Sequence record: PQ632788.1
Reading direction: 5' to 3' (one strand)
DNA length: 53,253 nt
DNA from: Pseudomonas phage Luminis
Part shown: piece after piece, positions 4,378-29,225 of the stretch
How the letters are laid out: each line of letters starts with the position of its first letter
How positions within the stretch are numbered: the stretch's first letter is position 1
Program-made: the position numbers and the translations under genes
The notes under the pieces: generated by a model
The model's database searches: none
Told to the model about the DNA's origin: nothing
What the model saw: the letters and a program-made list of their open reading frames with translations, nothing else

Positions 4378-4559
4378 AAGAACTGGGCCTGAAGGCGGTC
4401 CTGCTGATCGCCGCCGGGTTCTTGCTCATGACCGGGATGCGCCTTGCTGAATGGGCCATCCCGGTCCCGGAGCGGACCCTCAAACTGAACGTCACCCAAG
4501 AAATGGAGGAACCCGAAGATGAACAAGCCCCTGCTGATCGGCCAAGCACCCGGACCTAA
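4368..4559 (+). CDS. Small putative membrane protein
   Basis: GTG start overlapping the RNR stop. One hydrophobic helix LKAVLLIAAGFLLMTGM. Moderate GC3. Overlaps the next gene by 40 nt. Confidence 0.3.
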   Translation: MRVKELGLKAVLLIAAGFLLMTGMRLAEWAIPVPERTLKLNVTQEMEEPEDEQAPADRPSTRT

Positions 4560-6082: not shown

Positions 6083-6967
<885 letters not shown>

Positions 6968-6968
6968 G

Positions 6969-7805
6969 ATGATCGTCAACAACACCCCGGTCGAAACCTA
7001 TGAGCTCAACGGGGTCCCGATCCTCGTGAAGCGGGAGGACCTGTGCGCCCCGCTCCCGGGTCCGTCCTTCAGCAAGATTCGCGGAGTTGTCGCCCATATC
7101 AAGAACCGGCCTGAGACCACCATCGGCTGTCTGGACACGTACCACTCGAAGGCGGGCTGGGCGGTCGCCTACGTCTGCCAGCAGCTCGGGAAACAGGCCG
7201 TGGACTACTGGCCCCGCTTCAAGCGCGACGGGGCCGCGGACGCCCCGCGCGTCCAACAGCAGCACGCTCGCCAGCTCGGGGCGGACCTCGTGGACATCCC
7301 GGCGGGCCGCTCCGCGATCCTGTACCATACGGCCAAGAAGCACCTGCGGGAGAACTACCACGACAGCTACCTGATGCCGAACGCCCTGAAGCTCCCGGAG
7401 TCGATCACGGAGAACGCCGCGGAGGCCGTCCGCACCGCCCCGCACCTCCCGGACTCCGGGACCCTGGTCATCAGTATCAGCTCGGGGACGGTCGCCGCCG
7501 GGGTGCTCAAGGGCTTCGAGGAGGCGGGCCTGCTCCGCAACTACAACGTCATCCTCCACATGGGATACTCGCGGAGCCAGGACGCCACCCGGGAGTACAT
7601 CGAGAAGGCCGCGGGCCTGACCTTGGGCGACAGGATCAAGTTCATTGACGAGGGCTACGGGTACGCGGACGCGGCCCGGGACGCCTCCGCCCCGTTCCCC
7701 TGCAACCCGTTCTATGATCTGAAGGCTTGGAAGTGGCTGAGTGACCCGCTCAACCTGGCTTCCGTCCATCCACGCCCCATCGTGTTCTGGAACATCGGGT
7801 CATGA
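6969..7805 (+). CDS. PLP-dependent enzyme, fold-type II (ACC deaminase / D-cysteine desulfhydrase / Trp-synthase-beta superfamily)
   Basis: N-terminal ILVKREDLCAPLPGPSFSKIRG matches the PALP family lysine region. ATG 6969 overlaps the upstream stop (TGAGATG). Confidence 0.65.
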   Translation: MIVNNTPVETYELNGVPILVKREDLCAPLPGPSFSKIRGVVAHIKNRPETTIGCLDTYHSKAGWAVAYVCQQLGKQAVDYWPRFKRDGAADAPRVQQQHARQLGADLVDIPAGRSAILYHTAKKHLRENYHDSYLMPNALKLPESITENAAEAVRTAPHLPDSGTLVISISSGTVAAGVLKGFEEAGLLRNYNVILHMGYSRSQDATREYIEKAAGLTLGDRIKFIDEGYGYADAARDASAPFPCNPFYDLKAWKWLSDPLNLASVHPRPIVFWNIGS

Positions 7806-8182
7806 CGGACCGGCTCGCCTACTTCAACGACCGTTATCAGGAGGACCCGGAGACGGGGTGCTGGGTTTGGACCGGCTCTCGGGTCAATGGCCTGTACGGT
7901 TGCGCCAACATCGACTACAAGCAGACGTTGGCGCACCGGCTATCCTTCGAGCTGTTCAACGGCCCGATCCCGGACGGCGACAACGTCTGTCATCGCTGTG
8001 ACCGACCGTTGTGCGTCAATCCCAAGCATCTGTTCCTCGGGTCCCAGAAGGACAACTTGGAGGACATGACGCGGAAGGGTCGCCGCGCGGTGGGGCAGTT
8101 CGCCGGTCGCCGGCACTCGGAGGAGACGAAGGCCAAGATGTCCGCCGCCCGGAAGCGGTGGTGGGCGAGTCGGGCCAATTAA
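7802..8182 (+). CDS. HNH homing endonuclease
   Basis: HNH core AHRLSFELFNG...VCHRCDRPLCVNPKHLFLGSQKDN. Basic C-terminal tail. Inserted between metabolic genes. Confidence 0.8.
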   Translation: MTDRLAYFNDRYQEDPETGCWVWTGSRVNGLYGCANIDYKQTLAHRLSFELFNGPIPDGDNVCHRCDRPLCVNPKHLFLGSQKDNLEDMTRKGRRAVGQFAGRRHSEETKAKMSAARKRWWASRAN

Positions 8183-8187
8183 CGCCG

Positions 8188-8218
8188 CTTTACTTCTTCC
8201 GGGTAAGGCACTAGACTT
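8188..8218 (+). promoter_or_regulatory. Phage promoter copy 2
   Basis: CGCTTTACTTCTTCCGG with TTTACT at 8189-8194, a 17 nt spacer, then TAGACT at 8212-8217. Confidence 0.55.
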
Positions 8219-8244
8219 TTTCGCAATAGATGAGGAGTTGAACT

Positions 8245-9687
8245 ATGGACCACGCAGCATGGCTGAATGAAGAAACCGGCGAAGCCGCTCAGGAGGCTTA
8301 CAAGTATTTCATGCGCCCGGACCCGAACCAACGGGAGTTCCTGGGCCCAATCGAGGAGGAGGATGACCCGCTGACCGGCATGCGCGCGAAGTTCCGCATG
8401 GCCAAGGTGGGGATGGTCCGCAACGCGAAGGATGACGACAAGAAGGAGGTCAAGGTGTATCTTGGCTTCAATGACGTCACCTACCTCCCGCACATCCGCA
8501 TCCCGAACGCCAAGCCCCTTCAGGGCTGGTACCAGGACAAGCACAACGACAAGCGAGGCTCCCGCGCCCGCCCCTGCTTCAGCGAGGCGATCCTGACGGA
8601 GCCTTATGGGGGCTACTGCACCGTGGGTTGCGCCTTCTGCTACGTCAACAGCGGGTTCCGGGGCTACCGCGGCACCGGCCTCATCAGCGTCCCGGTGAAC
8701 TACGGCGAGCAGGTCCGCAACATGCTCTCGAAGTCCCGGACCTCCGCCGCGGGCTACTTCTCCAGCTTCACGGACCCCTTCCTGCCGATTGAGGACGTGT
8801 ACCACAACACCCAGCAGGGGGCGGAAGCCTTCGTGGAGTTGGGCCTGCCCATCTTCTTCCTGAGCCGTCTCAGCTACCCGTCCTGGGCCATCGACCTCCT
8901 GAAGCGGAACCCCTACAGCTACGCCCAGAAGTCGCTGAACACCGGCAACGACCGCGATTGGCACAAGCTGTCCCCCGGGGCCATTTCCCTCCAGGACCAT
9001 ATTGACGAAATCGCGGAGCTGCGCCGTCAGGGCATCTACACGTCCATTCAGGTCAATCCAGTGGTCCCGGGGATCGTCACCCATGACGACATCCGCCACC
9101 TGTTCGAGCGCCTGGCCGCGGTCGGCAACAACCACGTGATCGTGAAGTTTGTGGAAGCGGGCTACAGCTGGGCTCCGGCGATGATCGAACGCCTCCACAA
9201 GCGGTTCGGGCCGGAGCGCACCAAAGCCTTCACGGACCTGTTCACGGAGAACCAGGCCGGAGCCCAAAAGACCATCGCGGAGCCGTACCGGGTCGAAGCC
9301 CACCAGCTGTACCGGAAGTGGGCGACGGAGCTGGGCATGACCTACGCGACGTGCTATGAGTACCGCCGCGGGAAGCCCGGAACCGGCGAACCGGCCTGGC
9401 TTTCGATGGGCCGTGAAATGATCACCGCGGACCAGTGCCACGGCCAGCGCGTCCCGATGTTCACCCGGACCGATCTGGGCCATCCCTTCCAGGAGGTCAA
9501 GGAGTGCGCCCCCACCGGCTGTCTCCACTGCGCGGACGACAACGAGGGCAAGCCCCGCTGCGGTTCGGAACTGTTCGGGGCGGCGAAGGCTCTGCGCTCG
9601 CCCGACTTCAAGAAGATCGTGGAACCGACCCCGCCGGAGGAGGACGGCGGCGAGCGCAAGATCATCCCGATCACGCAGATTGACTGA
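8245..9687 (+). CDS. Radical SAM enzyme, SPL-like (DNA-acting radical SAM family)
   Basis: CxxxCxxC cluster in GGYCTVGCAFCYVNSG. GAGGAG RBS. Confidence 0.8.
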   Translation: MDHAAWLNEETGEAAQEAYKYFMRPDPNQREFLGPIEEEDDPLTGMRAKFRMAKVGMVRNAKDDDKKEVKVYLGFNDVTYLPHIRIPNAKPLQGWYQDKHNDKRGSRARPCFSEAILTEPYGGYCTVGCAFCYVNSGFRGYRGTGLISVPVNYGEQVRNMLSKSRTSAAGYFSSFTDPFLPIEDVYHNTQQGAEAFVELGLPIFFLSRLSYPSWAIDLLKRNPYSYAQKSLNTGNDRDWHKLSPGAISLQDHIDEIAELRRQGIYTSIQVNPVVPGIVTHDDIRHLFERLAAVGNNHVIVKFVEAGYSWAPAMIERLHKRFGPERTKAFTDLFTENQAGAQKTIAEPYRVEAHQLYRKWATELGMTYATCYEYRRGKPGTGEPAWLSMGREMITADQCHGQRVPMFTRTDLGHPFQEVKECAPTGCLHCADDNEGKPRCGSELFGAAKALRSPDFKKIVEPTPPEEDGGERKIIPITQID

Positions 9688-9695
9688 GCAACCCA

Positions 9696-9721
9696 GGCGG
9701 GGCTCCGGCTCCGCCGTTTTC
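9696..9721 (+). terminator. Terminator hairpin with UCCG tetraloop
   Basis: GGCGGGGC-TCCG-GCTCCGCC followed by GTTTTC. Confidence 0.55.
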
Positions 9722-9741
9722 AACTGAAAGGGAGAACCAAT

Positions 9742-10305
9742 ATGAAGTACATCAACGTGCGGGGCTGTAACGGCTCCGGCAAGACCACCCTGCTGCGCTG
9801 CCTGGCCCGCGATCCGCTTTGCCGCGTCATCAACGTCATCGTCCCGGACCACAAGCCGATCCCGGTGACGTATGCCCCGGACGGCATCGCCATCATCGGG
9901 GACTACACCCCCGCCGCCGCCGGAGCGACCACCGCCGGTCTGGACCGGATCAAGACCCAAGCCGCGGCCAAGGCCGTTGCGGAGCTGGTTGGGCGGGACC
10001 CGGACGTGAAGGCGGTCCTGTTCGAGGGCGTGGTGGTCAGTACCATCTACGGTCCGTGGGCAGAGTGGTCGAAGGCGAACGGCGGAATGATCTGGGCCTT
10101 CCTGGACACGCCGCTCGAAGTCTGCCTGAAGCGCATCCAGGAGCGCAACGGCGGGAAGCCCATCAAGGAGGACCAGGTGGCCGACAAGCACCGTACCATC
10201 GCCCGGGTCCGCGAGAAGGCCCTGGCGGACGGCGAGACGGTCCGCGACATCCACTGGGAGACGGCCCTGAAGGACATCAAGGCCGTCATCGAGAATTTGG
10301 GCTGA
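9742..10305 (+). CDS. P-loop nucleotide/DNA kinase (5-hydroxymethyluracil DNA kinase-like candidate)
   Basis: Walker A GCNGSGKTTLL near the N-terminus, about 187 aa. Adjacent to the transferase-like paralogs. Confidence 0.65.
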   Translation: MKYINVRGCNGSGKTTLLRCLARDPLCRVINVIVPDHKPIPVTYAPDGIAIIGDYTPAAAGATTAGLDRIKTQAAAKAVAELVGRDPDVKAVLFEGVVVSTIYGPWAEWSKANGGMIWAFLDTPLEVCLKRIQERNGGKPIKEDQVADKHRTIARVREKALADGETVRDIHWETALKDIKAVIENLG

Positions 10306-10316
10306 GGACCCCGACT

Positions 10317-11306
10317 ATGACCACCCCACGCATCAACGACATCGCCGCCTTCATGAAGGCCCGGCACGACATCTACTTGGACCGCAAGGCCGGGAAGCAC
10401 GGCCCCTGGACCGCGGACCCGGTTCTGCGTGACGGGCGGTTCTGTAACATCTTCCGCGAGCTGGACACCGTGACGATCTGGGTTGAGGAGAACATCCGCA
10501 AGCCCTACGCGGACCACCCGCACCTCTGGTTCATGCTCGCCATCGCCCGCTACATCAATTGGCCGGACACCCTCCGCTATCTGATGGACGAGGCGGAGCC
10601 GGGAACCTGGCCCGATGGGGAGGACTTCGAGCCCGCGAAGCTGACGAAGGCCCTGGAGGACTACGCCGCCGCGGGCAACAAGGTGTACACCGGAGCCTAC
10701 ATGATCCGCGCGGAGTCCGACCCCTCCAAGGAGTGGTACAGCTGGACCAAGCACCGCTACATCGCGGAGATTGTCCTGGGCCGTCTCTGGGAGGACCGCG
10801 AGGAATGGGCACGCGATCTGGAGCCCGCCAAGTCCGGTCTGCCCAAGGTTCCGCGGGCTCCGACCCTCGAAAGCGTGTGGGCCAAATTCCAGCAGCACCG
10901 CTACATCGGCTGGGGTCCGTTCATGGCCTATGAGGTGGTGACCGACCTCCGCCACACCCGCTACCTGCGCAACGCCCCGGACATATACACGTGGGCCAAC
11001 GCCGGTCCCGGGGCGATCCGCGGGCTCAACCGCCTGTATGGGCGCGACCTCGCCGCGAAGCCTCGCCCGGAGCAGACGAACGCGGAAATGATCGAGCTGA
11101 TGCGGGAGCTGAACGCCCTGGACGCCCCGGGCTTCAACGAAACCTTCGGACCGCCGCAGCTCGGGAGCCCGCACGTGGGGCCGCGGTTCGAGGCCCGGGA
11201 CATCGAACACACGCTGTGCGAGTTCGACAAGTATGAGCGCGTGCGCCTGAACGAAGGCAAGATGCGCTCGAAGTATGACTGGCGCAAGGCAACCACCCTC
11301 GCCTGA
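10317..11306 (+). CDS. Hypothetical protein, paralog B of the 6092-6967 protein
   Basis: ATG 10317 with GAGGA RBS. The track ORF 9819-11306 is an artefactual N-terminal extension that overlaps the kinase. Shares the GWGPFMAYEVVTDL motif with paralog A. Confidence 0.65.
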   Translation: MTTPRINDIAAFMKARHDIYLDRKAGKHGPWTADPVLRDGRFCNIFRELDTVTIWVEENIRKPYADHPHLWFMLAIARYINWPDTLRYLMDEAEPGTWPDGEDFEPAKLTKALEDYAAAGNKVYTGAYMIRAESDPSKEWYSWTKHRYIAEIVLGRLWEDREEWARDLEPAKSGLPKVPRAPTLESVWAKFQQHRYIGWGPFMAYEVVTDLRHTRYLRNAPDIYTWANAGPGAIRGLNRLYGRDLAAKPRPEQTNAEMIELMRELNALDAPGFNETFGPPQLGSPHVGPRFEARDIEHTLCEFDKYERVRLNEGKMRSKYDWRKATTLA

Positions 11307-11316
11307 TCGAAACCCC

Positions 11317-11338
11317 GCCGCCGGACCACTCCGGCGGC
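11317..11338 (+). terminator. GC-rich hairpin without U-tract (possible terminator/attenuator)
   Basis: GCCGCCGGA-CCAC-TCCGGCGGC. Confidence 0.3.
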
Positions 11339-11361
11339 ACCAACGAAATGGAGAAACCATC

Positions 11362-11922
11362 ATGGCTGTACGTCTGTCCAATTACATCCGCGAGCAAGTG
11401 CTGAATGCCGTCCTCAAGCACGCCTTCGAGGCCCGCGAAAAAGCCCTGGAGGCGGAGAAGTTCGCCCTGGGGGACGCCGTGTACAACGACATCTACCCGG
11501 AACCGCTCCGCAAGCAGATGGCCGCGCTGCCGGACGGCTTCTTGCCGACCGACAGTGACGTCAAGGTCCAGTTCGAGGGCCAACGCTTCACACACGTGTA
11601 CTTCGGGGAGCGCCGCCGCATCGCCAAGTCCCACGAGTACAGCGCCGCCCGGGTCTATGACGCCAAGCACCCTCTGACCGCCCGCTATGACGCCTGGAAG
11701 AAGGCCCAGGACGATCTGGACGCGGAGAAGTCCAAGGCGAAGTCCTCCGCGGAGGCCGTCCTGAACTCCGTCACCACGGTCAAGAAGTTGATCGAAGTCT
11801 GGCCGGAGGTGGAGCAGTTCGCCCGCCCCTTCGCGGTTGAATCGCCGTCCCGGGCTATCGCCCTGCCGATCCGCGAGCTGAACGCCCGTCTGGGCCTGCC
11901 TCCGCAAACCGCTTCCGCTTGA
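11362..11922 (+). CDS. Hypothetical protein
   Basis: ATG 11362 with GGAG RBS within track ORF 11275-11922. Confidence 0.55.
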   Translation: MAVRLSNYIREQVLNAVLKHAFEAREKALEAEKFALGDAVYNDIYPEPLRKQMAALPDGFLPTDSDVKVQFEGQRFTHVYFGERRRIAKSHEYSAARVYDAKHPLTARYDAWKKAQDDLDAEKSKAKSSAEAVLNSVTTVKKLIEVWPEVEQFARPFAVESPSRAIALPIRELNARLGLPPQTASA

Positions 11923-11935
11923 GTTGGAGTTGAAC

Positions 11936-12991
11936 ATGAAAGTCATCAAAGCCCGCAACGTACAACAGGCCCTCCCGGAGGCCCTGTATCAACTGTCCTT
12001 CGAGGGCGTCCGCCGCGACTCCCGCAACGGTCCCGTGTTCATGTTCCCGGAGCCCGTCACCACCGTGTACCTCCGCCCGGCGGAGCGCGTGCTGTTCTGG
12101 GCGGAACGGGACGCCAACCCCTTCTTCCACCTGATGGAAAGCCTCTGGATGCTGGGCGGACGCAATGACGTGGAGTACGTCGCCCGGTTCGTGGAGCGCA
12201 TGCGCAGCTACTCGGATGACGGCGTGACCTTCCACGGGGCCTACGGCTTCCGCTGGCGCCAGCACTTCTTCGAGGACCAGCTGCCCAGGATCATCGCCGC
12301 CCTGAAGGCGAACCGCGATGACCGCCGCCAGGTCCTTTCGATGTGGGACGCGGACGCGGACCTGGGCCGCCAAGGCAAGGACCTCCCCTGCAACCTTCAG
12401 GCCATCTTCCAGATCGCCTGCGACGGTCGCCTGGACATGACCGTGACCAACCGTTCCAACGACCTGATCTGGGGAGCCTACGGGGCCAACGCGGTCCACT
12501 TCAGCTACCTCCATGAGTACGTCGCCCGGAGTGTCGGGGTGGAACAAGGCATCTACCGCCAAGTCAGCGCCAACTTCCACGCCTATGAGGAGGTGCTGGG
12601 CAAGGTCGCCCCGCTCGCGGACCTCGCCGCCAACCCAATGACCGGGAAGGAGACGCCCGACCCCTACGCCGCCGGGATCGCGGAGCCCTACCCGCTGATG
12701 TCCACGGACCCGGAGGAGTGGAACCAGGAGCTGATGATGTTCCTGAGCGAGCCGGACGCCGTGGGCTTCCGTGACCCGTTCTTCCGTCGCGTGGCGATCC
12801 CGATGTTGAAGGCCCACAAGGCTTTCAAGCAGACCTCCAACCCCTCCCGCTTTGACGCCGCCTTGGCGGAGCTGGACAACGTCGCCGCCACCGACTGGAA
12901 GCTGGCCGGGGTGGAGTGGATCGAACGCCGCCGCGCCGCCTTCGAGGCTCGCAAGGCCCGGGCGATGGACGATGGCGTGGCGTATGAGTGA
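11936..12991 (+). CDS. Thymidylate synthase family enzyme, divergent (candidate dUMP/dCMP hydroxymethylase)
   Basis: ThyA-family motifs DLPCNLQAIFQ (active-site Cys region) and TNRSNDLIWGAYGANAVHFSYLHEYVA. The canonical CHxxFQF is replaced by CNLQAIFQ. Confidence 0.75.
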   Translation: MKVIKARNVQQALPEALYQLSFEGVRRDSRNGPVFMFPEPVTTVYLRPAERVLFWAERDANPFFHLMESLWMLGGRNDVEYVARFVERMRSYSDDGVTFHGAYGFRWRQHFFEDQLPRIIAALKANRDDRRQVLSMWDADADLGRQGKDLPCNLQAIFQIACDGRLDMTVTNRSNDLIWGAYGANAVHFSYLHEYVARSVGVEQGIYRQVSANFHAYEEVLGKVAPLADLAANPMTGKETPDPYAAGIAEPYPLMSTDPEEWNQELMMFLSEPDAVGFRDPFFRRVAIPMLKAHKAFKQTSNPSRFDAALAELDNVAATDWKLAGVEWIERRRAAFEARKARAMDDGVAYE

Positions 12992-13003
12992 GGAGACGGA
13001 ACA

Positions 13004-13639
13004 ATGGGAAGCCTGATGAGCAAGATTCATGACGAGGAGCGCGAGGCGGAGGAGCTGAACCGCCGCGCCGCCCGCCCGCTCCTGACCCGGATCGCCGCGA
13101 CCCGGGAGGCCGGGACGGTCCGCCGGTGCCACATCGTCCCGCACCACGGTCAGTACAACATCGCCCAGCACAGCTACGGGGCCGTGAGCCTCCTCCTGCT
13201 GCTCCACCCGCACCCGTCGCTGAACCTGATCAAGGCGGTCCAGTGGCACGACTGCGCGGAGCGTTGGTTGGGCGACATTCCGGCCCCGGCGAAGTGGACC
13301 CACTCCGAACTCGGGAAGGTGTATGAGGAGGCGGAACGCCGCGTGCTGGCGACCCTGGGCCTGCTCCCGGGCCTTCTCCCTGACGAGGAGGACTGGTTGA
13401 AGGCCGTGGACACCCTCGAACTGTGGCTATGGTGCCGGGAGGAAGAAGCCCTGGGCAACGAAGCGGTCACGGCCATGCGGAGGGCATGCGAGGCGGTGAC
13501 GGAGAAGCGGGGCCTGGAGGGTAGCCTGCCCGAACCCGTCCGCGCCTTCTACGTGGCAGCGAAGCACCAGCCGCATCGCCGTCTCTCGGACTTCTTCGAG
13601 GAGGTGGTGCGCGATGGACTTGGAGAAGCTGCGACGTGA
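13004..13639 (+). CDS. HD-domain phosphohydrolase
   Basis: H..HD-type motifs CHIVPHHGQYNIAQHSYG and QWHDCAERWLGD. Confidence 0.7.
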   Translation: MGSLMSKIHDEEREAEELNRRAARPLLTRIAATREAGTVRRCHIVPHHGQYNIAQHSYGAVSLLLLLHPHPSLNLIKAVQWHDCAERWLGDIPAPAKWTHSELGKVYEEAERRVLATLGLLPGLLPDEEDWLKAVDTLELWLWCREEEALGNEAVTAMRRACEAVTEKRGLEGSLPEPVRAFYVAAKHQPHRRLSDFFEEVVRDGLGEAAT

Positions 13640-13841
13640 TTGGGCGGAGGACCCGCAGCTGAAGTTCTACGCCTTCGACACGGTGGAAGAACTCGCTGCG
13701 CACCTCCGCAAGGTCCATACAGATATGATGAACGGGGAGCACGGGTGTTTTGGGTACTTGTACCGCCAGCAGACACTCCGGCTCCGGGAACTGATGAAGG
13801 AGTTACAAGATGAGCGTGAACGAAAAGCAAGTGGGCGGTGA
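13614..13841 (+). CDS. Hypothetical small protein
   Basis: GAGGAGG RBS. 26 nt overlap with the HD gene end. Moderately high GC3. Confidence 0.45.
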   Translation: MDLEKLRRDWAEDPQLKFYAFDTVEELAAHLRKVHTDMMNGEHGCFGYLYRQQTLRLRELMKELQDERERKASGR

Positions 13842-14196
13842 GCACTACCGCTCGCCCGTCCAACACTGGGACTATGTGGAGCTGAACGGCCTCCGCTACA
13901 CCGAAGGCTGCGCGACCAAGTACGCGACCCGCAACCGCAAGAAGCACGAGGACCCGCGCCAGGACCTTGAGAAGGCGATCCACTACGTGGAGAAGGTCCA
14001 GGACCTGTACCGCAACGGGGTCCTGCTGCCCCGCTCCGCCCCCGTGGTCATTACCCCGGACGCCTTCGCCGCCGCGAACGGGCTGACGGAGGACGAAGCC
14101 GAAGTGGTCCGCATCCTCACCTTCTGGGAGTCCGACCCGGAGCTGACCGCGGCCCTGAACCTCCTCCGCCGGATGATTGCGGAGGTCGGAGCCTGA
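13810..14196 (+). CDS. DUF3310-like phage protein
   Basis: Pattern GGEHY...QHWDY...KYATRNRKKHEDPRQDLEKAIHY resembles DUF3310. Confidence 0.55.
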   Translation: MSVNEKQVGGEHYRSPVQHWDYVELNGLRYTEGCATKYATRNRKKHEDPRQDLEKAIHYVEKVQDLYRNGVLLPRSAPVVITPDAFAAANGLTEDEAEVVRILTFWESDPELTAALNLLRRMIAEVGA

Positions 14197-16190
14197 TGTC
14201 ATACCTCCAACCACCCCTGTTCACGACCGTCTCCAGCGACTGGGTGGCCCCGGACCTCAGCACCCTCCCCTCGTGGGAGGGGGCCAAGCGGGTCGCCATC
14301 GACTGCGAGACGCGGGACCCGGACCTGCGCAAACTCGGGCCGGGGGCGGGCCGTCGCCCGAACAGCTACATCACCGGCATCAGCTTCGCAATCGAGGACG
14401 GCCCGGGCGGGTACTTGCCCATCAGACACGAAGGCGGGGGCAACCTCCCGCTGGAGGGCGTGCTGGCCTACCTCCGCGCCCAGGCAAAGGTGTTCACCGG
14501 CGACCTCGTGGGGGCCAACCTCCCGTATGACCTGGACTTCCTCGCCGGGGACGGCATCGAGTTCGAGCGGGTCCGCTACTTCCGTGACATCCAGATCGCT
14601 GACCCGCTGATCTGCGAACTCCACGACAGCTACAGCATGCAAGCTATCGCGGAGCGGTGGGGCTTCCACGGCAAGGACGAAGCCCTGCTGCGCGCCGCCG
14701 CGGTCGATTATGGGATTGACCCGAAGAAGGACATGTGGATGCTCCCGGCCAAGTTTGTCGGGAAGTACGCGGAGGAGGACACGCGCCTGCCTCTGAACAT
14801 CCTTCGCCGTCAGGAGCGGGAGATTGATGAGCAGGACCTCTGGGGCGTGTACAACCTGGAGTCCAAGCTGCTCCCGATCCTCACCCGCCTTCGCCGCCGG
14901 GGCGTCCGAATCGACTGCGACCGCCTGGACATGATTGAGCGTTGGGCGCTGGAGAAGGAGGCGGAGGCCCTGGCCCAAGTCCGGTCGATCACCGGCCACC
15001 GGATCGCCGTGGGGGATGTCTGGAAGCCGGAGGTGATCGCCCCCGCCCTCGAACACATCGGCATCAAGCTGAACAAGACCTCCCAGGGCAAGCCCAACAT
15101 CGACAAGGAGCTGCTGGGCTCAATCGACCACCCCGTGGCGGACCTCCTCGAACGTGCCCGGAAGGTGAACAAGCTGCGCACGACCTTCGCCAGCTCCGTC
15201 CGGGACCATATGGTGAATGGGCGTCTCCACGGGACGTTCAACCAGCTTCGCCGCCAGAAGGATGACGAAAGCGACGGGACCGCGGGCGCTGCCTACGGGC
15301 GACTGTCCAGCGAACACCCGAACCTCCAGCAGCAACCGGCTCGGGATGAGTTCGCCATGATGTGGCGTGCCATCTACCTCCCGGAGGAAGGCCAACACTG
15401 GGCATCCAACGACTACAGCCAGCAGGAGCCCCGGATGGCGGTTCACTACGCCTGCCTGGCGAAGGACCTGATTGGGCACCAGGCCTGGCTTTCGGCTATC
15501 GAAGCCCGCGACAAGTACCGCAACGACCCGAACACCGACAACCACCAGATGATGGCGGACATGGCGGGGATCAAGCGCAAGGACGCCAAGGAAATCTACC
15601 TGGGCCTGTCCTACGGGATGGGTGGGGCGAAGATGTGCCGCAAGCTCGGACTCCCGACGATGATGGCCGTGCGCGGCCCCCGCTTCCAGCTGTTCGACGT
15701 GAACAGCCCGGAGGGTCAGCGCCTGGTCGCGGAAGGGGCGCGGAGGTTCGAGGCCGCGGGGCCGGAAGGTCAGGCCCTCCTGGACACCTTCGACCGCCGC
15801 GTGCCGTTCATCAAGAAGCTGGCGAAGGCCTGCGAAGCCCGGGCGAAGGCCGTGGGCTATATCACCACGCTGTCGGGCCGTCGCTGCCGCTTCCCGAAGG
15901 ACCGTGACGGGAACTTCGACTGGACGCACAAGGGCCTGAACCGGCTGATTCAGGGCTCCTCCGCGGACCAGACCAAGATGGCTATGGTTGCCTGCGCGGA
16001 AGCCGGACTGGACATCATCATCCAGGTCCATGATGAGATCGCCTTCAGCGTACACGACATGAAGGAGGCCGCGGAAGCCGCCCATATCATGCGGACGTGC
16101 ACGCCGCTCGAACTCCCCTCCAAGGTGGACGTGGAGATTGGGCAGAGTTGGGGTCACTCCATGGGCTGGGACGGGAACCCACCATCATGA
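14196..16190 (+). CDS. DNA polymerase, family A, with 3'-5' exonuclease domain
   Basis: Exo I motif IAIDCETRD. Polymerase motif A DYSQQEPRMAV. Motif C QVHDEIAF. Confidence 0.9.
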   Translation: MSYLQPPLFTTVSSDWVAPDLSTLPSWEGAKRVAIDCETRDPDLRKLGPGAGRRPNSYITGISFAIEDGPGGYLPIRHEGGGNLPLEGVLAYLRAQAKVFTGDLVGANLPYDLDFLAGDGIEFERVRYFRDIQIADPLICELHDSYSMQAIAERWGFHGKDEALLRAAAVDYGIDPKKDMWMLPAKFVGKYAEEDTRLPLNILRRQEREIDEQDLWGVYNLESKLLPILTRLRRRGVRIDCDRLDMIERWALEKEAEALAQVRSITGHRIAVGDVWKPEVIAPALEHIGIKLNKTSQGKPNIDKELLGSIDHPVADLLERARKVNKLRTTFASSVRDHMVNGRLHGTFNQLRRQKDDESDGTAGAAYGRLSSEHPNLQQQPARDEFAMMWRAIYLPEEGQHWASNDYSQQEPRMAVHYACLAKDLIGHQAWLSAIEARDKYRNDPNTDNHQMMADMAGIKRKDAKEIYLGLSYGMGGAKMCRKLGLPTMMAVRGPRFQLFDVNSPEGQRLVAEGARRFEAAGPEGQALLDTFDRRVPFIKKLAKACEARAKAVGYITTLSGRRCRFPKDRDGNFDWTHKGLNRLIQGSSADQTKMAMVACAEAGLDIIIQVHDEIAFSVHDMKEAAEAAHIMRTCTPLELPSKVDVEIGQSWGHSMGWDGNPPS

Positions 16191-16501
16191 AATTCTGCTA
16201 TCAGTGTGACGCGCAGGTCACTTACTTGTTTGCGGACGCACGCTGCGCAAAGTGTACCCGCCTGACCCCGGAGGAAGTCCGGGGCGAACCCCTGGAGAAT
16301 GATATGCGCCGCAGCAACGACAACACCGTGGACCTCGAAGTGGTCATCAAGCGCGAGACAGACAAGGCATACCTCATCGACCACGGCGGTGAGGAGGAAG
16401 TCTGGATGCCCAAGTCACAGGTCCGCGCGGTCGAGAAGAAAGGCCGCACAGCGACCCTGACCGTCACCGAATGGATCGCCAACGAGAAGGGGCTGATATG
16501 A
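16187..16501 (+). CDS. Hypothetical zinc-ribbon protein
   Basis: ATGA overlap with the polymerase stop. N-terminal CYQCD...CAKC motif. Confidence 0.5.
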   Translation: MKFCYQCDAQVTYLFADARCAKCTRLTPEEVRGEPLENDMRRSNDNTVDLEVVIKRETDKAYLIDHGGEEEVWMPKSQVRAVEKKGRTATLTVTEWIANEKGLI

Positions 16502-16959
16502 GCGAGCGCCAGGACCGCTGGGACCGCCGCTATGTTGGGCTGGCCCAACACGTCGCGGGCTGGAGCAAGGACCCCTCCACGAAGGTCGGAGCCGTCCTGG
16601 TTCGGCCTAACAACAGCGTGGCTTCGACCGGGTTCAACGGCTTCCCGCCCGGGCACGATGATTCGCCGGAGCTGTACGCTGACCGCGGGTACAAGTACCA
16701 GCACGTTGTTCACGCTGAGGTCAATGCGCTCAACTTTTTAGGCTCGCCTGCGACTGGCTTCACGCTCTATACTTCTTTCCCCTGCTGTCCGAACTGTATG
16801 GAGGCTGCGGGGAAGGCGGGCGTGAAGCGGGTCGCCTTCCCGGGCATCGACTACACGGGCCGCGATCCGGGGTGGGTTGCTGAGTGGAATCGACGCATTG
16901 ACGAGGCTCTGGAAGTCGCCCGCCGCTACAACATCGAAGTGAGGTGGGTTGATGTCTGA
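16498..16959 (+). CDS. dCMP/cytidine deaminase
   Basis: Zinc-binding deaminase motifs HAEVNAL and PCCPNC. Confidence 0.85.
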   Translation: MSERQDRWDRRYVGLAQHVAGWSKDPSTKVGAVLVRPNNSVASTGFNGFPPGHDDSPELYADRGYKYQHVVHAEVNALNFLGSPATGFTLYTSFPCCPNCMEAAGKAGVKRVAFPGIDYTGRDPGWVAEWNRRIDEALEVARRYNIEVRWVDV

Positions 16960-17350
16960 AGCCGCAATGTGGGATTCCCTCCGCCCCGTCATCCGGTCGC
17001 TGGACCCGGTGCGCGTGGAGAACCCCATTGTGCCCGGGACCCCGGATGTGAACTACAACCAGGGCTGGATTGAATTGAAGTTCGCTGAACGCTGGCCGCC
17101 CAGGGGCGGACCGCTTCGAGTGGACCACTTCACCCGCCAGCAGAGGACCTGGCTGACCCGTCGCCGCAAGGCCGGGGGCCGGGCCTTCCTCCTGCTGAAG
17201 GTCGGGGAGACGGAGTGGTTGCTATTCGATGGAGCGGTGGCCGCTGCTATGCTGGGCCAGGTTCCGCGAGAACGCCTGTATGAGGTCTGTGTCGCACGTT
17301 GGACACGCCTTCCAAGAACCAAGGAGATTTGTACATGTCTGCTACAGTGA
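16952..17350 (+). CDS. Putative PD-(D/E)XK nuclease-like protein (VRR-NUC / resolvase-like)
   Basis: Candidate D...ELK core in PDVNYNQGWIELK. GAGGTG RBS. Confidence 0.4.
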   Translation: MSEAAMWDSLRPVIRSLDPVRVENPIVPGTPDVNYNQGWIELKFAERWPPRGGPLRVDHFTRQQRTWLTRRRKAGGRAFLLLKVGETEWLLFDGAVAAAMLGQVPRERLYEVCVARWTRLPRTKEICTCLLQ

Positions 17351-17661
17351 CACCAACCAAAGGCGAAAGCCTACTGCTACACCGCCGCCGCAAGGGCCTC
17401 AACCAAATTGAGGCCGCGAAGGAGTACGGGGTGCACCCGGACCGCTACCGTGAATGGGAAGCGGACCGCCGCCTGGACGATCAACCGCGCCAGCACCTCG
17501 GACAACTGAAGCCCCACGAGGTCTGCTTGCTGTTCCGCCGCCGCTCGGGTAAGACCCAGCGCGAAATCGCCGCCGCTCTGGGCTGCACTCGCCTCTGGCT
17601 GATTCAAATGGAAAGTGGGAACGCCCCCGTGGAGCGCCTGCGCGAATACTGGGGGTTTTGA
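17335..17661 (+). CDS. HTH (XRE-like) DNA-binding protein
   Basis: ATG 17335 with AAGGAG RBS. Two helix-turn-helix-like segments (LNQIEAAKEYGVHPDRYREWE and TQREIAAALGCTRLWLIQME). Confidence 0.5.
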   Translation: MSATVTPTKGESLLLHRRRKGLNQIEAAKEYGVHPDRYREWEADRRLDDQPRQHLGQLKPHEVCLLFRRRSGKTQREIAAALGCTRLWLIQMESGNAPVERLREYWGF

Positions 17662-17662
17662 C

Positions 17663-18166
17663 ATGACCTGCGGCATCTACTTGATCAACCATAAACCCTC
17701 CGGGCGGAAGTACGTGGGGCAAGCCCGGAACGTGGAAGAACGCTGGGAACGTCACCGCAAGGGCGACACAAACCGCTATCTGCGCGAAATCGTTGCGACC
17801 GAAGGACCGGAGGCCCTGGAGTTCCAGCTGCTCGAAGTCGCGGAGCCGGAGAACCTGAACGCCCGGGAAATCTTCTGGATTGGGCAACACGCCAGTATGT
17901 ATCCGCAAGGCTTCAACCTCACCGCGGGCGGGAAGGTCCCTGACTCGGTTTCGCCGGAGGTCCGCCAGATACTGTCCCAGGCCCAGCGCAAGGCTTGGGA
18001 GGGCGACCCGAAGCGGAAGCAGCGACAAGCTGAATTGGGCCGTCAACGCATGGCGCAGGACGGCTACCGGGAAAGGACTGTCTGTTCACCGGAGGCCCGG
18101 GCGAAGATTGCCGCGGGTATGAAGGAACGGGCAGGTGAGATGAATCGCAAGCGGTGGGGGAATTAA
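17663..18166 (+). CDS. GIY-YIG homing endonuclease
   Basis: GIYLINHKPSGRKYVGQARNVEERWERH core. C-terminal NUMOD-like repeats. Confidence 0.8.
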   Translation: MTCGIYLINHKPSGRKYVGQARNVEERWERHRKGDTNRYLREIVATEGPEALEFQLLEVAEPENLNAREIFWIGQHASMYPQGFNLTAGGKVPDSVSPEVRQILSQAQRKAWEGDPKRKQRQAELGRQRMAQDGYRERTVCSPEARAKIAAGMKERAGEMNRKRWGN

Positions 18167-18168
18167 CA

Positions 18169-20580
18169 ATGGCGGAACTGCCGAAACACAAGACCAAGGA
18201 CGCCATCGACTTCTTGAAGAAGTGGTGCCCGGAAGGGCCGTGGGTCCTGACGGCCATCATCCCGGACGGGAAAACGGAGACGGTCACATTCATGCCCGAC
18301 CGCTGGCAGAAGGCCGCGGAGTGGATCGAAGGACATCAGGGCAAGCGCAACCTGTACTTCCACGTGAACCCGGTCCGCCGGGCGATGGACGTGAAAGCCT
18401 CGAAGGAGGACATGGCCCGCCTCGCCTGGCTTCACGTGGACATCGACCCGCGAGCCGGGGAGGACTTCGAGGAGGAGCGGGCGCGGGCGCTGAAGCTGCT
18501 CCAGTCCTACACGCCCAAGCCCACGGTCATCATCGACTCGGGCGGGGGCTATCAGGGCTTTTGGCGTCTGAATCCGTCCGACAAGCTGGACATCGCCGGA
18601 TCGGTGGCGAAGGCTCAGGAGCTGGAAGCGTACAACATCCAGCTGGAGAAGGTGTTTCAGGCGGACCACTGCCACAACGTGGACCGCATCATGCGCCTCC
18701 CGGGCACGATCAACATGCCCACCGCGAAGAAGGTCAAGAAGGGTCGCCAGCCGACCCTCGCCCGTCTCGTGGAGTGGAATGAGGCCAGCTACCCCATCGA
18801 GCAATTCACCCCCGCGGTTCGAGTCCAGATGGCGGAGCAGGGCCTGGCCGGGGGCCGTCCGAAGGTGAAGATCACGGGCAACGTCCCGGACATCGGGACG
18901 GAGGAGCTGCGGGAGTGGGCCCATGAGCACGGGAAGGCTATCAGCGACCACGTACTGGCGCTGATTGCTACTGGGCAGGACCCGCTGGACCCGACCAAGT
19001 ACCCCTCCCGGTCGGAAGCCCTGTTCAAGGTCTGCTGCGACCTCGTGCGGGCGGAGGTCCCTGATGAAATGATCTTCGCGGTGATCACCGGCTCCAACGA
19101 AATCGCCGCGAGCGTCAGAGACAAGCCGAACTGGGAAGGCTACGCCCTGCGGCAGATCGAACGTGCCCACGAGGAGGCGGTGGACCCTTGGCTGCGCAAG
19201 CTCAACGAGAAGCACGCCGTCATCGCAGACATCGGCGGGAAGTGCCGCATCATCAGCGAGGTCTGGGACCCGGCGATGAAGCGGACCAAAATCAGCAAGC
19301 AGTCCTTCGAGGACTTCCGCAACCGCTACCGCCACATCAAGGTAGTGGTTGGGCACTCGGAGGAGGGCAAGCCCATCGAGAAGGCCGCGGGAGCCTTCTG
19401 GATTGATCACCCCCAGCGCCGCCAATATGAGACCATCGTGTTTGCCCCCGGCCAGGAGGTCGAAGAAGCCTACAACCTCTGGCGCGGGTTCGCGTGCGAC
19501 TCCCTCCCGGGCGAGAAGCACATGCCCTTCCTGAACCACATCCGCGACAACGTCTGCTCAGGGAACCCGGAGCACTACCACTACCTGATCGGGTGGATGG
19601 CGCGGATGGTCCAGCACCCGGACGGCCCGGGCGAAGTGGCCGTGGTCCTCCGCGGTCGCCGCGGCACCGGCAAGTCCTTCTTCGCCAAGGTCCTGGGCGC
19701 GATGTTCGGGCGTCACTACCTCCAAGTCAGCGACTCGAAGCACCTGGTGGGCTCTTTCAACGCCCACCTCCGCGATACCGTCCTGCTGTTCGGTGATGAG
19801 GCTTTCTTCGCCGGGGACAAGAAGCACGAAAGCGTGCTCAAGACCCTCGTGACCGAAGAACACCTGGTGATCGAGGGCAAGGGCGTGGACGCGGAAGCGG
19901 CCCCGAACTATGTCCACCTGGTCCTCGCCTCGAACGAAGATTGGGTGGTGCCCGCGGGTCTGGATGAACGCCGGTTCTTCGTCATGGAGGTGGGCGAGGG
20001 ACACAAGCAGGACCACGCCTATTTCAAGCGCATCAAGGACGATCTGGACAACGGAGGACTTGAGCACCTGCTCCACTTCCTCCTGACCTATGACCTGAGC
20101 GCCTTCGAGGTTCGCCAGGTCCCCCAGACCCGGGCGCTGCAGGACCAGAAGATCATGAGCATGTCGCCGGAAACCCAGTGGATGTATGAGAAGCTGTGGG
20201 AGGGCCGGTTGCTCAAGACCGACCAGGACTGGCGGAACAAGGTGGTGAAGGACAGCCTGTATGACGACTACGTGAACGACCTCCGCGACCAGGGCCGGAA
20301 CTTCCGCATGAGCCGCACCGGCTTCGGCAAGTGGCTTGCCCGGGCCTTCCCGGACGGCTGGCCGCAGTCGAAGCAGGAAATGGCGGAGATTCCATGGACC
20401 AATGAGCACGGCTTCGAGGTCATGATCAAGAAGCGCGTGTACATGTACTACCTCCCGCCGCTGTCCGATGTCCGCAACCACTGGGACAAGAACTTTGGCG
20501 GACCCTTCGACTGGCCCAAGGTCGAGCCCCATCAGGAACCCCTGGCGGACGGCCCGAAGTCGGACAAGCCCCCATTCTGA
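18169..20580 (+). CDS. Primase-polymerase / SF3 (D5/P4-alpha-like) helicase fusion
   Basis: N-terminal prim-pol-like domain. C-terminal Walker A VVLRGRRGTGKSFFAKVLG and LVLASNE Walker B region. Confidence 0.8.
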   Translation: MAELPKHKTKDAIDFLKKWCPEGPWVLTAIIPDGKTETVTFMPDRWQKAAEWIEGHQGKRNLYFHVNPVRRAMDVKASKEDMARLAWLHVDIDPRAGEDFEEERARALKLLQSYTPKPTVIIDSGGGYQGFWRLNPSDKLDIAGSVAKAQELEAYNIQLEKVFQADHCHNVDRIMRLPGTINMPTAKKVKKGRQPTLARLVEWNEASYPIEQFTPAVRVQMAEQGLAGGRPKVKITGNVPDIGTEELREWAHEHGKAISDHVLALIATGQDPLDPTKYPSRSEALFKVCCDLVRAEVPDEMIFAVITGSNEIAASVRDKPNWEGYALRQIERAHEEAVDPWLRKLNEKHAVIADIGGKCRIISEVWDPAMKRTKISKQSFEDFRNRYRHIKVVVGHSEEGKPIEKAAGAFWIDHPQRRQYETIVFAPGQEVEEAYNLWRGFACDSLPGEKHMPFLNHIRDNVCSGNPEHYHYLIGWMARMVQHPDGPGEVAVVLRGRRGTGKSFFAKVLGAMFGRHYLQVSDSKHLVGSFNAHLRDTVLLFGDEAFFAGDKKHESVLKTLVTEEHLVIEGKGVDAEAAPNYVHLVLASNEDWVVPAGLDERRFFVMEVGEGHKQDHAYFKRIKDDLDNGGLEHLLHFLLTYDLSAFEVRQVPQTRALQDQKIMSMSPETQWMYEKLWEGRLLKTDQDWRNKVVKDSLYDDYVNDLRDQGRNFRMSRTGFGKWLARAFPDGWPQSKQEMAEIPWTNEHGFEVMIKKRVYMYYLPPLSDVRNHWDKNFGGPFDWPKVEPHQEPLADGPKSDKPPF

Positions 20581-22849: not shown

Positions 22850-23119
22850 ATGAAACCGCTGCTGATCTTCGCCCTCGCCCTGCTGCCCCTCGCCACGCAG
22901 GCGGCACCGGAGGACCGCCCCCTGTATAACGCCCAGGAGACGGTCCGGCGTGCGCAGATCGGCAGCAATTCCTCACGCCTCGCCCCTCCGTCCCGGGTCC
23001 TCCCGGCGGAGGTCGGGGCGAAGCCGGACCCGGCCCGCTTCGAGCGGCTGGAGTGCTGGCACGATCCCGCCCGACCCCTGGGCAACCGTATTGTTTGCGA
23101 ACCTCGGAGAACCAAATGA
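22850..23119 (+). CDS. Small secreted protein with N-terminal signal peptide
   Basis: Signal peptide MKPLLIFALALLPLATQAAP. GAGG RBS. Confidence 0.5.
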   Translation: MKPLLIFALALLPLATQAAPEDRPLYNAQETVRRAQIGSNSSRLAPPSRVLPAEVGAKPDPARFERLECWHDPARPLGNRIVCEPRRTK

Positions 23120-23727
23120 GCAACGAAACCCAAGAATCAATCACCCGCTGGGCTGACGACACCTTCGGAGTGAAGCACCCGGCGGAAGTCGCCGCCCGTA
23201 TGAACGTGGAGGTGGCGGAACTGGTCGCGGGCCTCGCCACCGTCGCCGCCGTCCCGGTCGAAGATATGGACCCGGAGCTGGTCCAGGAACTCCAGAAGGA
23301 ATGCGCGGACGTATTCATCATGCTCGCCCAGGTCGCGGAGAAGCTGGACGTGGACCTTCAGACCGTGGTGGACTACAAGATGGGGGTGAACCGCCGCCGC
23401 AACTGGACCCGGAGCCCGTCCGGGAAGATGCAGCACGTTGAGACGTTCCTGGAGCCGGGGAGCGGGCTTGAGATGGAGCTGGACAAGTTCTACATCCTCA
23501 GCGACTCCGGCCACTTCTACACTGACCGGGGCTTCGAGTCCGCGGACGCCGCCCTGAACTGGGCCCAGTCCGCGGAGGGGGTCGCCGCCGGAGCCGAAGG
23601 AGCTGTGGTGCCGACCTTTCGGGCCGGGGGCTTCTTCGAGGGCCAGGACGGCGTGAACATTTACCTGGGCCGCGAGCTGCGCGCCTTCTGGAAAGCCAAC
23701 CCCCTGTGCGAAGGAGAACCGGCATGA
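23116..23727 (+). CDS. MazG-like nucleoside triphosphate pyrophosphohydrolase
   Basis: All-alpha NTP-PPase motifs EVAELVAGL...ELQKECADVFIMLAQVAEKLDVDL. Confidence 0.7.
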   Translation: MSNETQESITRWADDTFGVKHPAEVAARMNVEVAELVAGLATVAAVPVEDMDPELVQELQKECADVFIMLAQVAEKLDVDLQTVVDYKMGVNRRRNWTRSPSGKMQHVETFLEPGSGLEMELDKFYILSDSGHFYTDRGFESADAALNWAQSAEGVAAGAEGAVVPTFRAGGFFEGQDGVNIYLGRELRAFWKANPLCEGEPA

Positions 23728-29148: not shown

Positions 29149-29161
29149 ACACCCGGCGGGG

Positions 29162-29192: not shown

Positions 29193-29225
29193 TCTTCACC
29201 TCAATCAGAAATGGAGAACCCCGAC

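Follow-up and report, generated by a model that had tools for sequence, protein, structure and literature searches.

The genome of Pseudomonas phage Luminis (sequence record PQ632788.1) raises the question whether a run of nucleotide-metabolism genes serves ordinary deoxynucleotide supply or the replacement of a DNA base. The 53,253-nucleotide stretch analyzed here is henceforth termed the window. Its positions 11936-16959 encode a divergent homolog of the thymidylate synthase ThyA, a putative HD phosphohydrolase and a predicted deoxycytidine monophosphate (dCMP) deaminase. An original prediction, made from the sequence letters, had grouped these genes with a class II ribonucleotide reductase (RNR) and a MazG pyrophosphatase at 23116 into a set consistent with replacement of deoxythymidine triphosphate (dTTP), HD and MazG enzymes being the usual dTTP/dUTP-clearing activities of phages that exclude thymidine. 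We find that the interval very probably encodes the nucleotide-pool half of the pathway by which phage M6 and related phages of the genus Yuavirus hypermodify thymidine. The idea was thus largely right, and it is not new: the gene set belongs to a known system, and no new one is claimed here because publications on near-identical phages already cover the pathway, the compound it makes and four of the enzymes. Through hypermodified thymidine these phages withstand restriction enzymes, and the enzymes involved are useful for rewriting DNA chemistry.

Megablast searches with positions 8000-17500 and 1-25000 yielded dozens of siphophage genomes from Pseudomonas aeruginosa, with identities of 96-98% and a query cover of 96-100%, among them PSP2, MP1412, PAE1 and LKO4 (about 97% nucleotide identity), Clover and NEU2024. 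By these matches, and by the taxonomy line of M6 (genus Yuavirus, family Mesyanzhinovviridae), the window is identified as a Pseudomonas aeruginosa Yuavirus; its G+C content is 64-66%, and every credible gene is on its + strand. We compared 15 window proteins with their M6 counterparts in the gp46-gp74 range. They occur in the same order and are 96-100% identical (97-100% in 12 of the 15), with the exception of a protein carrying the HMUDK helical domain (HMUDK_hel, 86-88%) and an Nmad5 protein (57-62%). In M6 DNA, thymidine (T) is the only base modified, deoxycytidine is normal, and 5-(2-aminoethyl)uridine (5-NedU) stands at about 30% of T positions; its authors also predicted 5-NedU for YuA, MP1412, PAE1, LKO4 and AN14 (PMC5889632). 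The window genes that bear on the nucleotide pool are as follows.

11936-12991, + strand: ThyA-family enzyme of 351 residues, predicted deoxyuridine monophosphate (dUMP) 5-hydroxymethyltransferase (Pfam Thymidylat_synt, 1.5e-17; phrog_5131, 1.9e-172)
13004-13639, + strand: HD phosphohydrolase, YfbR-like (Pfam YfbR-like, PF12917, 4e-8, 33.6 bits against a cut-off of 25.9)
13810-14196, + strand: all-alpha DUF3310 protein (Pfam DUF3310, PF11753, 21.8 bits, just below the cut-off of 24)
14196-16190, + strand: family A DNA polymerase, 664 residues (Pfam DNA_pol_A, 1.9e-46; phrog_17, 2.3e-123)
16498-16959, + strand: dCMP deaminase (Pfam dCMP_cyt_deam_1, PF00383, 2.2e-16, 60 bits against a cut-off of 25; phrog_174, 7.2e-51)
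2515-4377, + strand: class II (adenosylcobalamin, NrdJ-type) RNR (TIGR02504 NrdJ_Z, 1e-154, 516 bits against a cut-off of 400)
23116-23727, + strand: all-alpha nucleoside triphosphate (NTP) pyrophosphohydrolase of the MazG fold (residues 1-95) with a C-terminal domain of about 100 residues (PDB match MazZ 7ODY, 4.9e-6)

The ThyA homolog that had been proposed at 11936 is indeed a ThyA-family open reading frame (ORF), 97.7% identical to M6 gp58, and most GenBank records label it 'thymidylate synthase'. It nevertheless falls by a wide margin below the cut-offs of all seven curated thymidylate synthase models that it matched, with TIGR03283 as best NCBIfam match (79.9 bits against a cut-off of 174.55). 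A PDB search gave the CMP hydroxymethylase MilA as best match (2.9e-17), with the best thymidylate synthase at 6.6e-10. Beyond its own family, its best phage relatives are SPO1-type deoxyuridylate hydroxymethyltransferases and ViI-like enzymes; identity is 34% to SPO1-type gp29 and 28% to the hydroxymethylase (HMase) of Acinetobacter phage SH-Ab 15599, the enzyme used to make 5-hydroxymethyldeoxyuridine (5-hmdU) in E. coli.

For a residue-level view, the homolog was compared in an alignment to E. coli ThyA and to T4 gp42, whose sequence was confirmed against PDB 1B49, as well as to SPO1-type gp29 and the HMase of SH-Ab 15599. It retains the nucleophilic Cys152, Arg130-Arg131, Arg173/Ser174/Asp176 (RSND motif) and His215/Tyr217 (HxY). 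Asn185 falls on the position of E. coli Asn177 (N177), where T4 gp42 and MilA have Asp; because this is the base-reading position and both of those enzymes are cytosine-specific, the substrate is presumably a uracil nucleotide. The Cys/Arg/Ser/Asp/Asn set is common to dUMP hydroxymethylases and does not discriminate them from thymidylate synthase. In thymidylate synthase, a Trp at E. coli position W80 shields the methylene intermediate and a short C-terminus closes over the folate. The W80 column is a gap in the homolog, in SPO1-type gp29 and in the SH-Ab 15599 HMase; the I79 column holds Met in the first two and Ala in the third, and the W83 column holds Tyr. Instead of the short closure, the core of the homolog continues at its C-terminus into an extension (about 120 residues) alignable with MilA, and SPO1-type gp29 has a long C-terminal tail as well. 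Loss of the W80-equivalent Trp together with the extension is suggestive of a hydroxymethylase and goes no further than that; the Trp loss is not decisive, since T4 gp42 keeps its Trp.

The adjacent 5-hmdU DNA kinase requires DNA that contains 5-hmdU, and the window ORFs scanned yielded no oxygenase domain able to make 5-hmdU from T in DNA, which points to a hydroxymethyl product. The failed thymidylate synthase models and the fact that the nearest characterized relatives are hydroxymethylases argue in the same direction, and together they make a strong case for a dUMP hydroxymethylase. The kinase belongs to a post-replicative module at 6092-11922, overlooked in the original prediction, which defines the end point of the pathway, 5-NedU at about 30% of T:

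6092-6967, + strand: aGPT-Pplase2 (ADDT), a glycine:DNA transferase acting on 5-phosphomethyldeoxyuridine (5-PmdU) to give N-alpha-glycinylthymidine, abbreviated N-alpha-GlyT (Pfam ADDT, 8e-47; 97.6% identical to M6 gp51)
6969-7805, + strand: pyridoxal phosphate (PLP)-dependent decarboxylase, C-alpha-GlyT to 5-NedU (Pfam PALP, 6.4e-10; 97% identical to M6 gp52; Lys36)
8245-9687, + strand: radical S-adenosylmethionine (SAM) glycinyl-thymine isomerase, N-alpha-GlyT to C-alpha-GlyT (phrog_9252, score 1119; 99.4% identical to M6 gp53)
9742-10305, + strand: 5-hmdU DNA kinase (5-HMUDK) with a P-loop (Pfam HMUDK_HMUD1, PF18748, 5.2e-18, 65.7 bits against a cut-off of 27)
10302-11306, + strand: HMUDK_hel protein (Pfam HMUDK_hel, 2.2e-57; 86-88% identical to M6 gp55; start codon uncertain)
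11275-11922, + strand: Nmad5, nucleotide modification associated domain 5 (Pfam Nmad5, 3.5e-52; 57-62% identical to M6 gp56)

For M6, the kinase gp54 and the transferase gp51 convert 5-hmdU in DNA to N-alpha-GlyT in vitro, a reaction for which gp55 is dispensable; the radical SAM enzyme gp53 then isomerizes the product and the PLP enzyme gp52 decarboxylates it to 5-NedU, so that gp51-gp54 have been reconstituted in vitro (PMC8989533). The kinase and transferase of YuA have likewise been produced as proteins for assays, and the latter has been crystallized (PMC13458397), while a genome note on SN1 describes the same cassette upstream of the polymerase gene, including Nmad5 and aGPT-Pplase1 (HMUDK_hel-type) (PMC9476957). 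Published work thus demonstrates the four post-replicative steps and the identity of 5-NedU with M6 proteins that are 97-99% identical to those of the window. Our kinase (98.9% identical to M6 gp54) carries the P-loop GCNGSGKT. The motifs published for M6, CTVGCAFC at residue 125 of the radical SAM enzyme and Lys36 of the PLP enzyme (PMC8989533), recur at the same positions in the window proteins; the former protein bears the database label 'DNA repair photolyase'. The radical SAM and PLP genes lie between the transferase and kinase genes as in M6, the order differing only by an inserted HNH ORF. On every feature that sequence can test (kinase, transferase, radical SAM/PLP pair and ThyA-family enzyme), the window thus classes as a member of the M6-type 5-NedU system.

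The inserted ORF, at 7802-8182 (+), encodes an HNH/NUMOD3 homing endonuclease and separates the PLP decarboxylase gene from that of the radical SAM isomerase, where M6 has only a 70-bp gap, and reads as a mobile insertion within the hypermodification operon. HMUDK_hel (86-88%) and Nmad5 (57-62%) stand out from flanking genes that are 97-100% identical to those of M6, a pattern that marks a mosaic exchange confined to the two uncharacterized proteins of the cluster. HMUDK_hel homologs are also present in Ab18, PhiJL001 and SH-Ab 15599.

Supply of dUMP to the hydroxymethylase would come from the dCMP deaminase, whose reading frame ends at 16959 as had been proposed. Its zinc motifs, HAE at residues 72-74 followed by CPNC (CxxC), are seen in the translation; it is 96-97% identical to M6 gp65, with an alternative start codon at 16471, and family membership argues strongly for conversion of dCMP to dUMP. 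The class II RNR, on the other hand, had been misplaced. No RNR barrel domain is found within 11936-16959, and the sole large ORF there, 14196-16190, is the family A DNA polymerase (99.1% identical to M6 gp62). The NrdJ-type RNR lies at 2515-4377, about 7.5 kb upstream of the interval (Pfam Ribonuc_red_lgC, 1e-105; 99.4% identical to M6 gp46). Several public records already label genes of this set deoxyuridylate hydroxymethyltransferase, 5'-deoxynucleotidase, dCMP deaminase and MazG-like pyrophosphatase.

The prediction that the genes sit together for a reason also holds. Beyond the gene order shared with M6, the ThyA-like, HD and DUF3310 genes form a trio that is contiguous and collinear in four other, distantly related phages: Ab18, PhiJL001 and the P22-like podoviruses MW202655 and P26218. 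We conclude from this conservation that the clustering is not due to chance. In Ab18, MW202655 and P26218, the trio adjoins homologs of 5-HMUDK and aGPT-Pplase, lying directly downstream of them. In PhiJL001, HMUDK_hel and Nmad5 precede the trio, and the fetched part of that genome gave no 5-HMUDK or aGPT-Pplase2 match. Ab18 and PhiJL001 are siphoviruses and the other two podoviruses, and the tailoring enzymes differ across the carriers; since the order of the trio is kept despite these differences, it represents a conserved module tied to the hydroxymethylase rather than to one final modification. It thereby narrows the candidates for removal of dTTP and deoxythymidine monophosphate (dTMP) and for phosphorylation of 5-hmdU monophosphate (5-hmdUMP) in M6-type phages. 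As a separate observation, PhiJL001 (13637-14455) carries an annotated glucosyltransferase in addition to the trio, HMUDK_hel and Nmad5, which hints at a different, possibly glycosylated, 5-hmdU derivative.

The HD phosphohydrolase of the trio exceeds the Pfam cut-off for YfbR-like proteins and bears the expected motifs. In its PDB match to E. coli YfbR (3.9e-5), H82-D83, E86, D91 and D136 align to H68-D69, E72, D77 and D137, and H56 is likely the first metal-binding His. Against the equivalog model NF003009 it reaches 25.4 bits, far under the cut-off of 122. With the equivalog-level match failed, the protein is a distant relative only, and the substrate of YfbR is not transferable to it. YfbR has a broad substrate range among deoxynucleoside monophosphates (dNMPs), and its PDB entry was deposited as a 5'-deoxynucleotidase, not as a dTTPase. 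With a YfbR-like active site in the HD protein, and with YfbR acting as a 5'-nucleotidase on dNMPs, the most natural guess is a dTMPase role; by this analogy, the protein may drain thymidylate as a dTMP 5'-nucleotidase and/or a dTTP hydrolase. The HD protein also weakly matches a PHROG family named 'dATP triphosphohydrolase' (7e-7), the activity of DatZ. An assignment as DatZ was considered and dropped: no DatZ chain appeared in a PDB phmmer search at E up to 1.

The MazG pyrophosphatase predicted at 23116 is recovered on structural grounds. No Pfam match passes the gathering cut-off (PF12643, MazG-like, 13.1 bits against 27), so the assignment relies on a PDB phmmer match and on the fold, along with conserved acidic motifs. 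The phmmer matches are MazZ of cyanophage S-2L (7ODY, 4.9e-6) and YpjD (1.1e-3). An AlphaFold model (pLDDT 90) places helices at residues 2-17, 22-41, 53-76 and 81-94, i.e. the four-helix MazG fold, and Foldseek retrieved MazZ, DCTPP1, YpjD and DR2231 with TM scores on the target of 0.65-0.79 (0.74-0.79 for MazZ). The acidic motif reads E32-x-x-E35...E62-x-x-D65; among 19 homologs E62 and D65 never vary, and conservation of E32 and E35 is at least 90%. Public annotation agrees, with 'putative pyrophosphatase' or 'MazG-like' in PaSz-4, Lydia, LKO4 and PAE1. Because the MazG domain is nearest to MazZ and DCTPP1, at 26-28% identity, its base specificity is not readable from homology; by analogy it may be a dUTP/dTTP (or dCTP) pyrophosphohydrolase. 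Orthology with gp18 of SH-Ab 15599, a dTTPase/dUTPase, was tried and dropped, since gp18 belongs to dUTPase_2 and the two proteins share no detectable similarity, which leaves a functional analogy. Some 6 kb separate the gene from the cluster, and the parts fetched of Ab18, PhiJL001, MW202655 and P26218 gave no match to it. Residues ~96-203 (23401-23727, +) form a confidently modelled, beta-rich C-terminal domain that has no PDB match among the Foldseek matches; some relatives consist of the MazG domain only (111-118 residues, e.g., in phage Rocky), and in others a long insert separates the domains.

The third member of the trio, the DUF3310 protein, scores just below the Pfam cut-off, and many of its homologs carry PF11753. 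The nucleotide kinase gp1.7 of T7 has a DUF3310 domain at residues 122-184 (81.5 bits). BLAST of the window protein against gp1.7 gave no match, hhalign aligned only 31 columns, at a probability of 6.5% (E 0.0057), and Foldseek with a confident AlphaFold model found no matching PDB fold. The protein might conceivably be a 5-hmdUMP kinase, a very tentative hypothesis; we found no assays of the M6/YuA DUF3310 protein in the literature searched.

These components can be arranged into a working model. The dCMP deaminase would convert dCMP to dUMP, onto whose C5 the ThyA-family enzyme would place the one-carbon unit of methylenetetrahydrofolate (CH2-THF); the exocyclic methylene intermediate would then be hydrated rather than reduced, giving 5-hmdUMP (dUMP + CH2-THF + H2O -> 5-hmdUMP). 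Host kinases, speculatively with the help of the DUF3310 protein, would raise 5-hmdUMP to the triphosphate 5-hmdUTP, and by pathway logic its incorporation would fall to the family A polymerase of the phage, whose gene lies in the same block. By a tentative analogy, the likeliest task of the HD and MazG-fold hydrolases would be to deplete rival thymidine nucleotides and/or to return dUTP or dCTP to the feeder monophosphates. After replication, 5-HMUDK would phosphorylate 5-hmdU in DNA, aGPT-Pplase2 would swap the phosphate for glycine, the radical SAM enzyme would rearrange N-alpha-GlyT to C-alpha-GlyT, and the PLP enzyme would decarboxylate the latter to 5-NedU. The pre-replicative part follows a published model in which a dUMP hydroxymethylase, dTTPase, dTMPase, dCMP deaminase and dNMP kinase let 5-hmdUTP replace dTTP (PMC8989533). 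That model was drawn from Bacillus 5-hydroxymethyluracil (hmU) phages and PhiW-14, with no gene assignment in M6 (PMC8989533, PMC5977210).

Might the pool genes instead provide a generic dNTP supply for lytic growth, with the ThyA homolog as an ordinary thymidylate synthase beside the RNR and dCMP deaminase and no base replacement at all? The prevailing GenBank label would fit, and the catalytic Cys, the dUMP-binding arginines and Asn185 are compatible with that chemistry. We nevertheless consider this highly improbable, given a score of at best 79.9 against 174.55 bits and under every curated threshold, a closer kinship to hydroxymethylases than to any thymidylate synthase, the lack of the W80-position Trp and of the short C-terminal closure, an extension of ~120 residues as in MilA and SPO1 gp29, and a neighboring 5-hmdU DNA kinase and 5-NedU machinery that need 5-hmdU in DNA from a phage in which no oxygenase domain was seen among the ORFs scanned. 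Hydroxymethylation of dCMP in the manner of T4 gp42, with cytosine as the modified base, could be argued from the best solved relative, MilA, being a cytidylate hydroxymethylase. It is exceedingly improbable: Asn185 is as in thymidylate synthase where T4 gp42 and MilA have Asp, the nucleosides of M6 comprise normal dC and modified T only (PMC5889632), and a dCMP deaminase encoded in the same block would destroy the substrate. A dUMP hydroxymethylase fed by dCMP deaminase, with 5-hmdUTP in the place of dTTP, is the part of the dTTP-replacement idea that agrees with the sequence and the literature (PMC8989533, PMC5889632); the expected end point, a genome free of thymidine, does not stand.

The assignment of thymidine-clearing roles to the HD and MazG-like proteins is only an analogy, and several points weigh against it and against the wider scheme. 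M6 virion DNA retains about 70% ordinary thymidine (PMC5889632), and the assertion that dTTP is fully excluded draws on an analogy to PhiW-14 and to the Bacillus hmU phages, with no measurement in M6 in the literature searched. The same literature yielded no assays of the ThyA homolog, HD, dCMP deaminase, RNR or MazG-like proteins of M6-type phages, and the alignment, inspected for a signature that cleanly splits hydration from hydride transfer in the ThyA family, gave none that is certain. The HD protein resembles a monophosphatase of broad dNMP specificity; the MazG-like protein lacks similarity to gp18 of SH-Ab 15599, and its nearest structures act on purine dNTPs (MazZ) or dCTP (DCTPP1). 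It is therefore conceivable, though on balance unlikely, that neither protein clears thymidine nucleotides and the pathway otherwise runs as proposed, with the MazG-like protein as a dCTP/dUTP pyrophosphohydrolase that only feeds dCMP or dUMP into the pathway or as a general sanitizer of non-canonical dNTPs, the HD protein as a general dNMP nucleotidase, and the ~70% virion T stemming from host dTTP that competes with 5-hmdUTP. Such an account draws on the 26-28% identity of the MazG domain to MazZ (dGTP/dATP) and DCTPP1 (dCTP), its dissimilarity to gp18, the deposition of YfbR, the closest solved relative of the HD protein, as a 5'-deoxynucleotidase, the ~70% T of M6 DNA, and the position of the MazG-like gene 6 kb off the cluster and outside the fetched parts of the four trio phages. 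It sits less well with an HD gene directly downstream of the ThyA-like gene in M6, Ab18, PhiJL001, MW202655 and P26218, since a fixed place beside the hydroxymethylase gene in five phage lineages suggests a pathway-specific role. Phage-induced dTTPase and dTMPase activities are moreover documented in the hmU and PhiW-14 systems (PMC8989533, PMC5977210), and the thymidine in PhiW-14 and SP10 DNA is formed from 5-hmdU after replication (PMC5889632). Should the HD and MazG-like proteins eliminate thymidine nucleotides, the ~70% virion T must arise post-replicatively from 5-hmdU or 5-PmdU. HMUDK_hel/aGPT-Pplase1 (10302-11306) and Nmad5 (11275-11922) would then be prime candidates for the reductive step because they are the only conserved uncharacterized proteins inside the cluster. 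This fuller scenario, in which virion T is remade and the trio is a portable 5-hmdUTP cassette with DUF3310 as its kinase, we regard as rather doubtful; if true, the reductive conversion of 5-hmdU or 5-PmdU to T, unexplained since the work on PhiW-14 and SP10, would gain candidates.

Other genes of the window were noted in passing. At 4519-5025 (+), a 168-residue protein, 100% identical to M6 gp48, gives a weak match to the uracil-DNA glycosylase superfamily (Pfam, 0.002, below cut-off); such an activity, if true, would fit a phage that raises dUMP/dUTP pools. Two small conserved ORFs lie within the interval: a gp60-like ORF of 75 residues at 13614-13841 (+), 100% identical to that of M6, and a 104-residue ORF at 16187-16501 (+) with zinc-ribbon and S1-like features and a weak S1_2 match only. 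A GIY-YIG endonuclease ORF at 17615-18166 (+; Pfam, 7.1e-10), a probable second homing endonuclease, is flanked by a tandem helix-turn-helix regulator (17299-17661) and the primase (18154-20580). Farther downstream are a Rv2179c-like 3'-5' exonuclease (27158-27730, +; Pfam, 1.4e-29) and a 156-residue protein (28678-29148, +) whose match covers no more than the first half of the GGDEF diguanylate cyclase profile (Pfam, 1.9e-15, positions 2-87 of 161) and which could be a truncated or repurposed nucleotide cyclase. An ArdA/KlcA-type antirestriction protein (29136-29639, +; Pfam Antirestrict, 1.8e-27) follows, so the phage is predicted to join DNA hypermodification with a protein-based anti-restriction function.

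Comparison with known systems places the window at graded distances. In the Z-genome phages S-2L and PhiVC8, MazZ (MazG-like) and DatZ (HD) folds stand beside a base-replacing synthase, as the corresponding pair does in the window, and remodel the purine pool. There, 2-aminoadenine takes the place of adenine and the synthase is PurZ, so the likeness is a design analogy and not membership. SPO1 ends with hmU as its final base. In the M6-type pathway, unlike in the Bacillus hmU phages, 5-hmdU is an intermediate only, and 13 kb fetched of an SPO1-type locus contained no HD, DUF3310 or MazG-like homolog. The pool logic is nonetheless the same: the Bacillus phages (SPO1, SP8, phi-e) replace dTTP with 5-hmdUTP (PMC8989533), and Delftia phage PhiW-14 shares this dTTP-replacing scheme (PMC8989533, PMC5977210).

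Closer to the window, SH-Ab 15599 has a 5-HMUDK-type pathway with dUMP HMase, dCMP deaminase and Pplase2, although its first 40 kb contain no HD or DUF3310 homolog. Its gp18, from the dapT pathway, hydrolyzes dTTP and dUTP and spares 5-hmdUTP; an all-alpha NTP pyrophosphohydrolase of the dUTPase/dCTP-pyrophosphatase-like (dUTPase_2) type, it is the sole biochemically proven dTTPase/dUTPase of a 5-HMUDK phage (PMC13458397) and offers a precedent for pool remodelling by an enzyme of the all-alpha kind. It is built as a kinase-like/dUTPase_2 fusion, unlike the MazG-like protein of the window. Ab18 (Abidjanvirus) shares with the window the genes for 5-HMUDK, aGPT-Pplase2, HMUDK_hel, ThyA-like, HD, DUF3310, polymerase and dCMP deaminase, and their order is identical. 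It differs in having a class Ia instead of a class II RNR and no Nmad5 or MazG-like match in the fetched part, and PaMx11 and Ab18 represent the pathway to 5-aminomethyldeoxyuridine and its acetylated form (5-NmdU/5-AcNmdU), where a flavin adenine dinucleotide (FAD) lyase and an acetyltransferase take the place of the PLP and radical SAM enzymes. M6 and YuA (Lee et al. 2018 PNAS, PMC5889632; Lee et al. 2021 NAR, PMC8989533) match the window in gene content and gene order over the span from the RNR to the MazG-like protein; relative to M6, the window adds the HNH ORF (7802-8182) and the GIY-YIG ORF (17615-18166) and has divergent Nmad5 and HMUDK_hel proteins, with the pathway unchanged.

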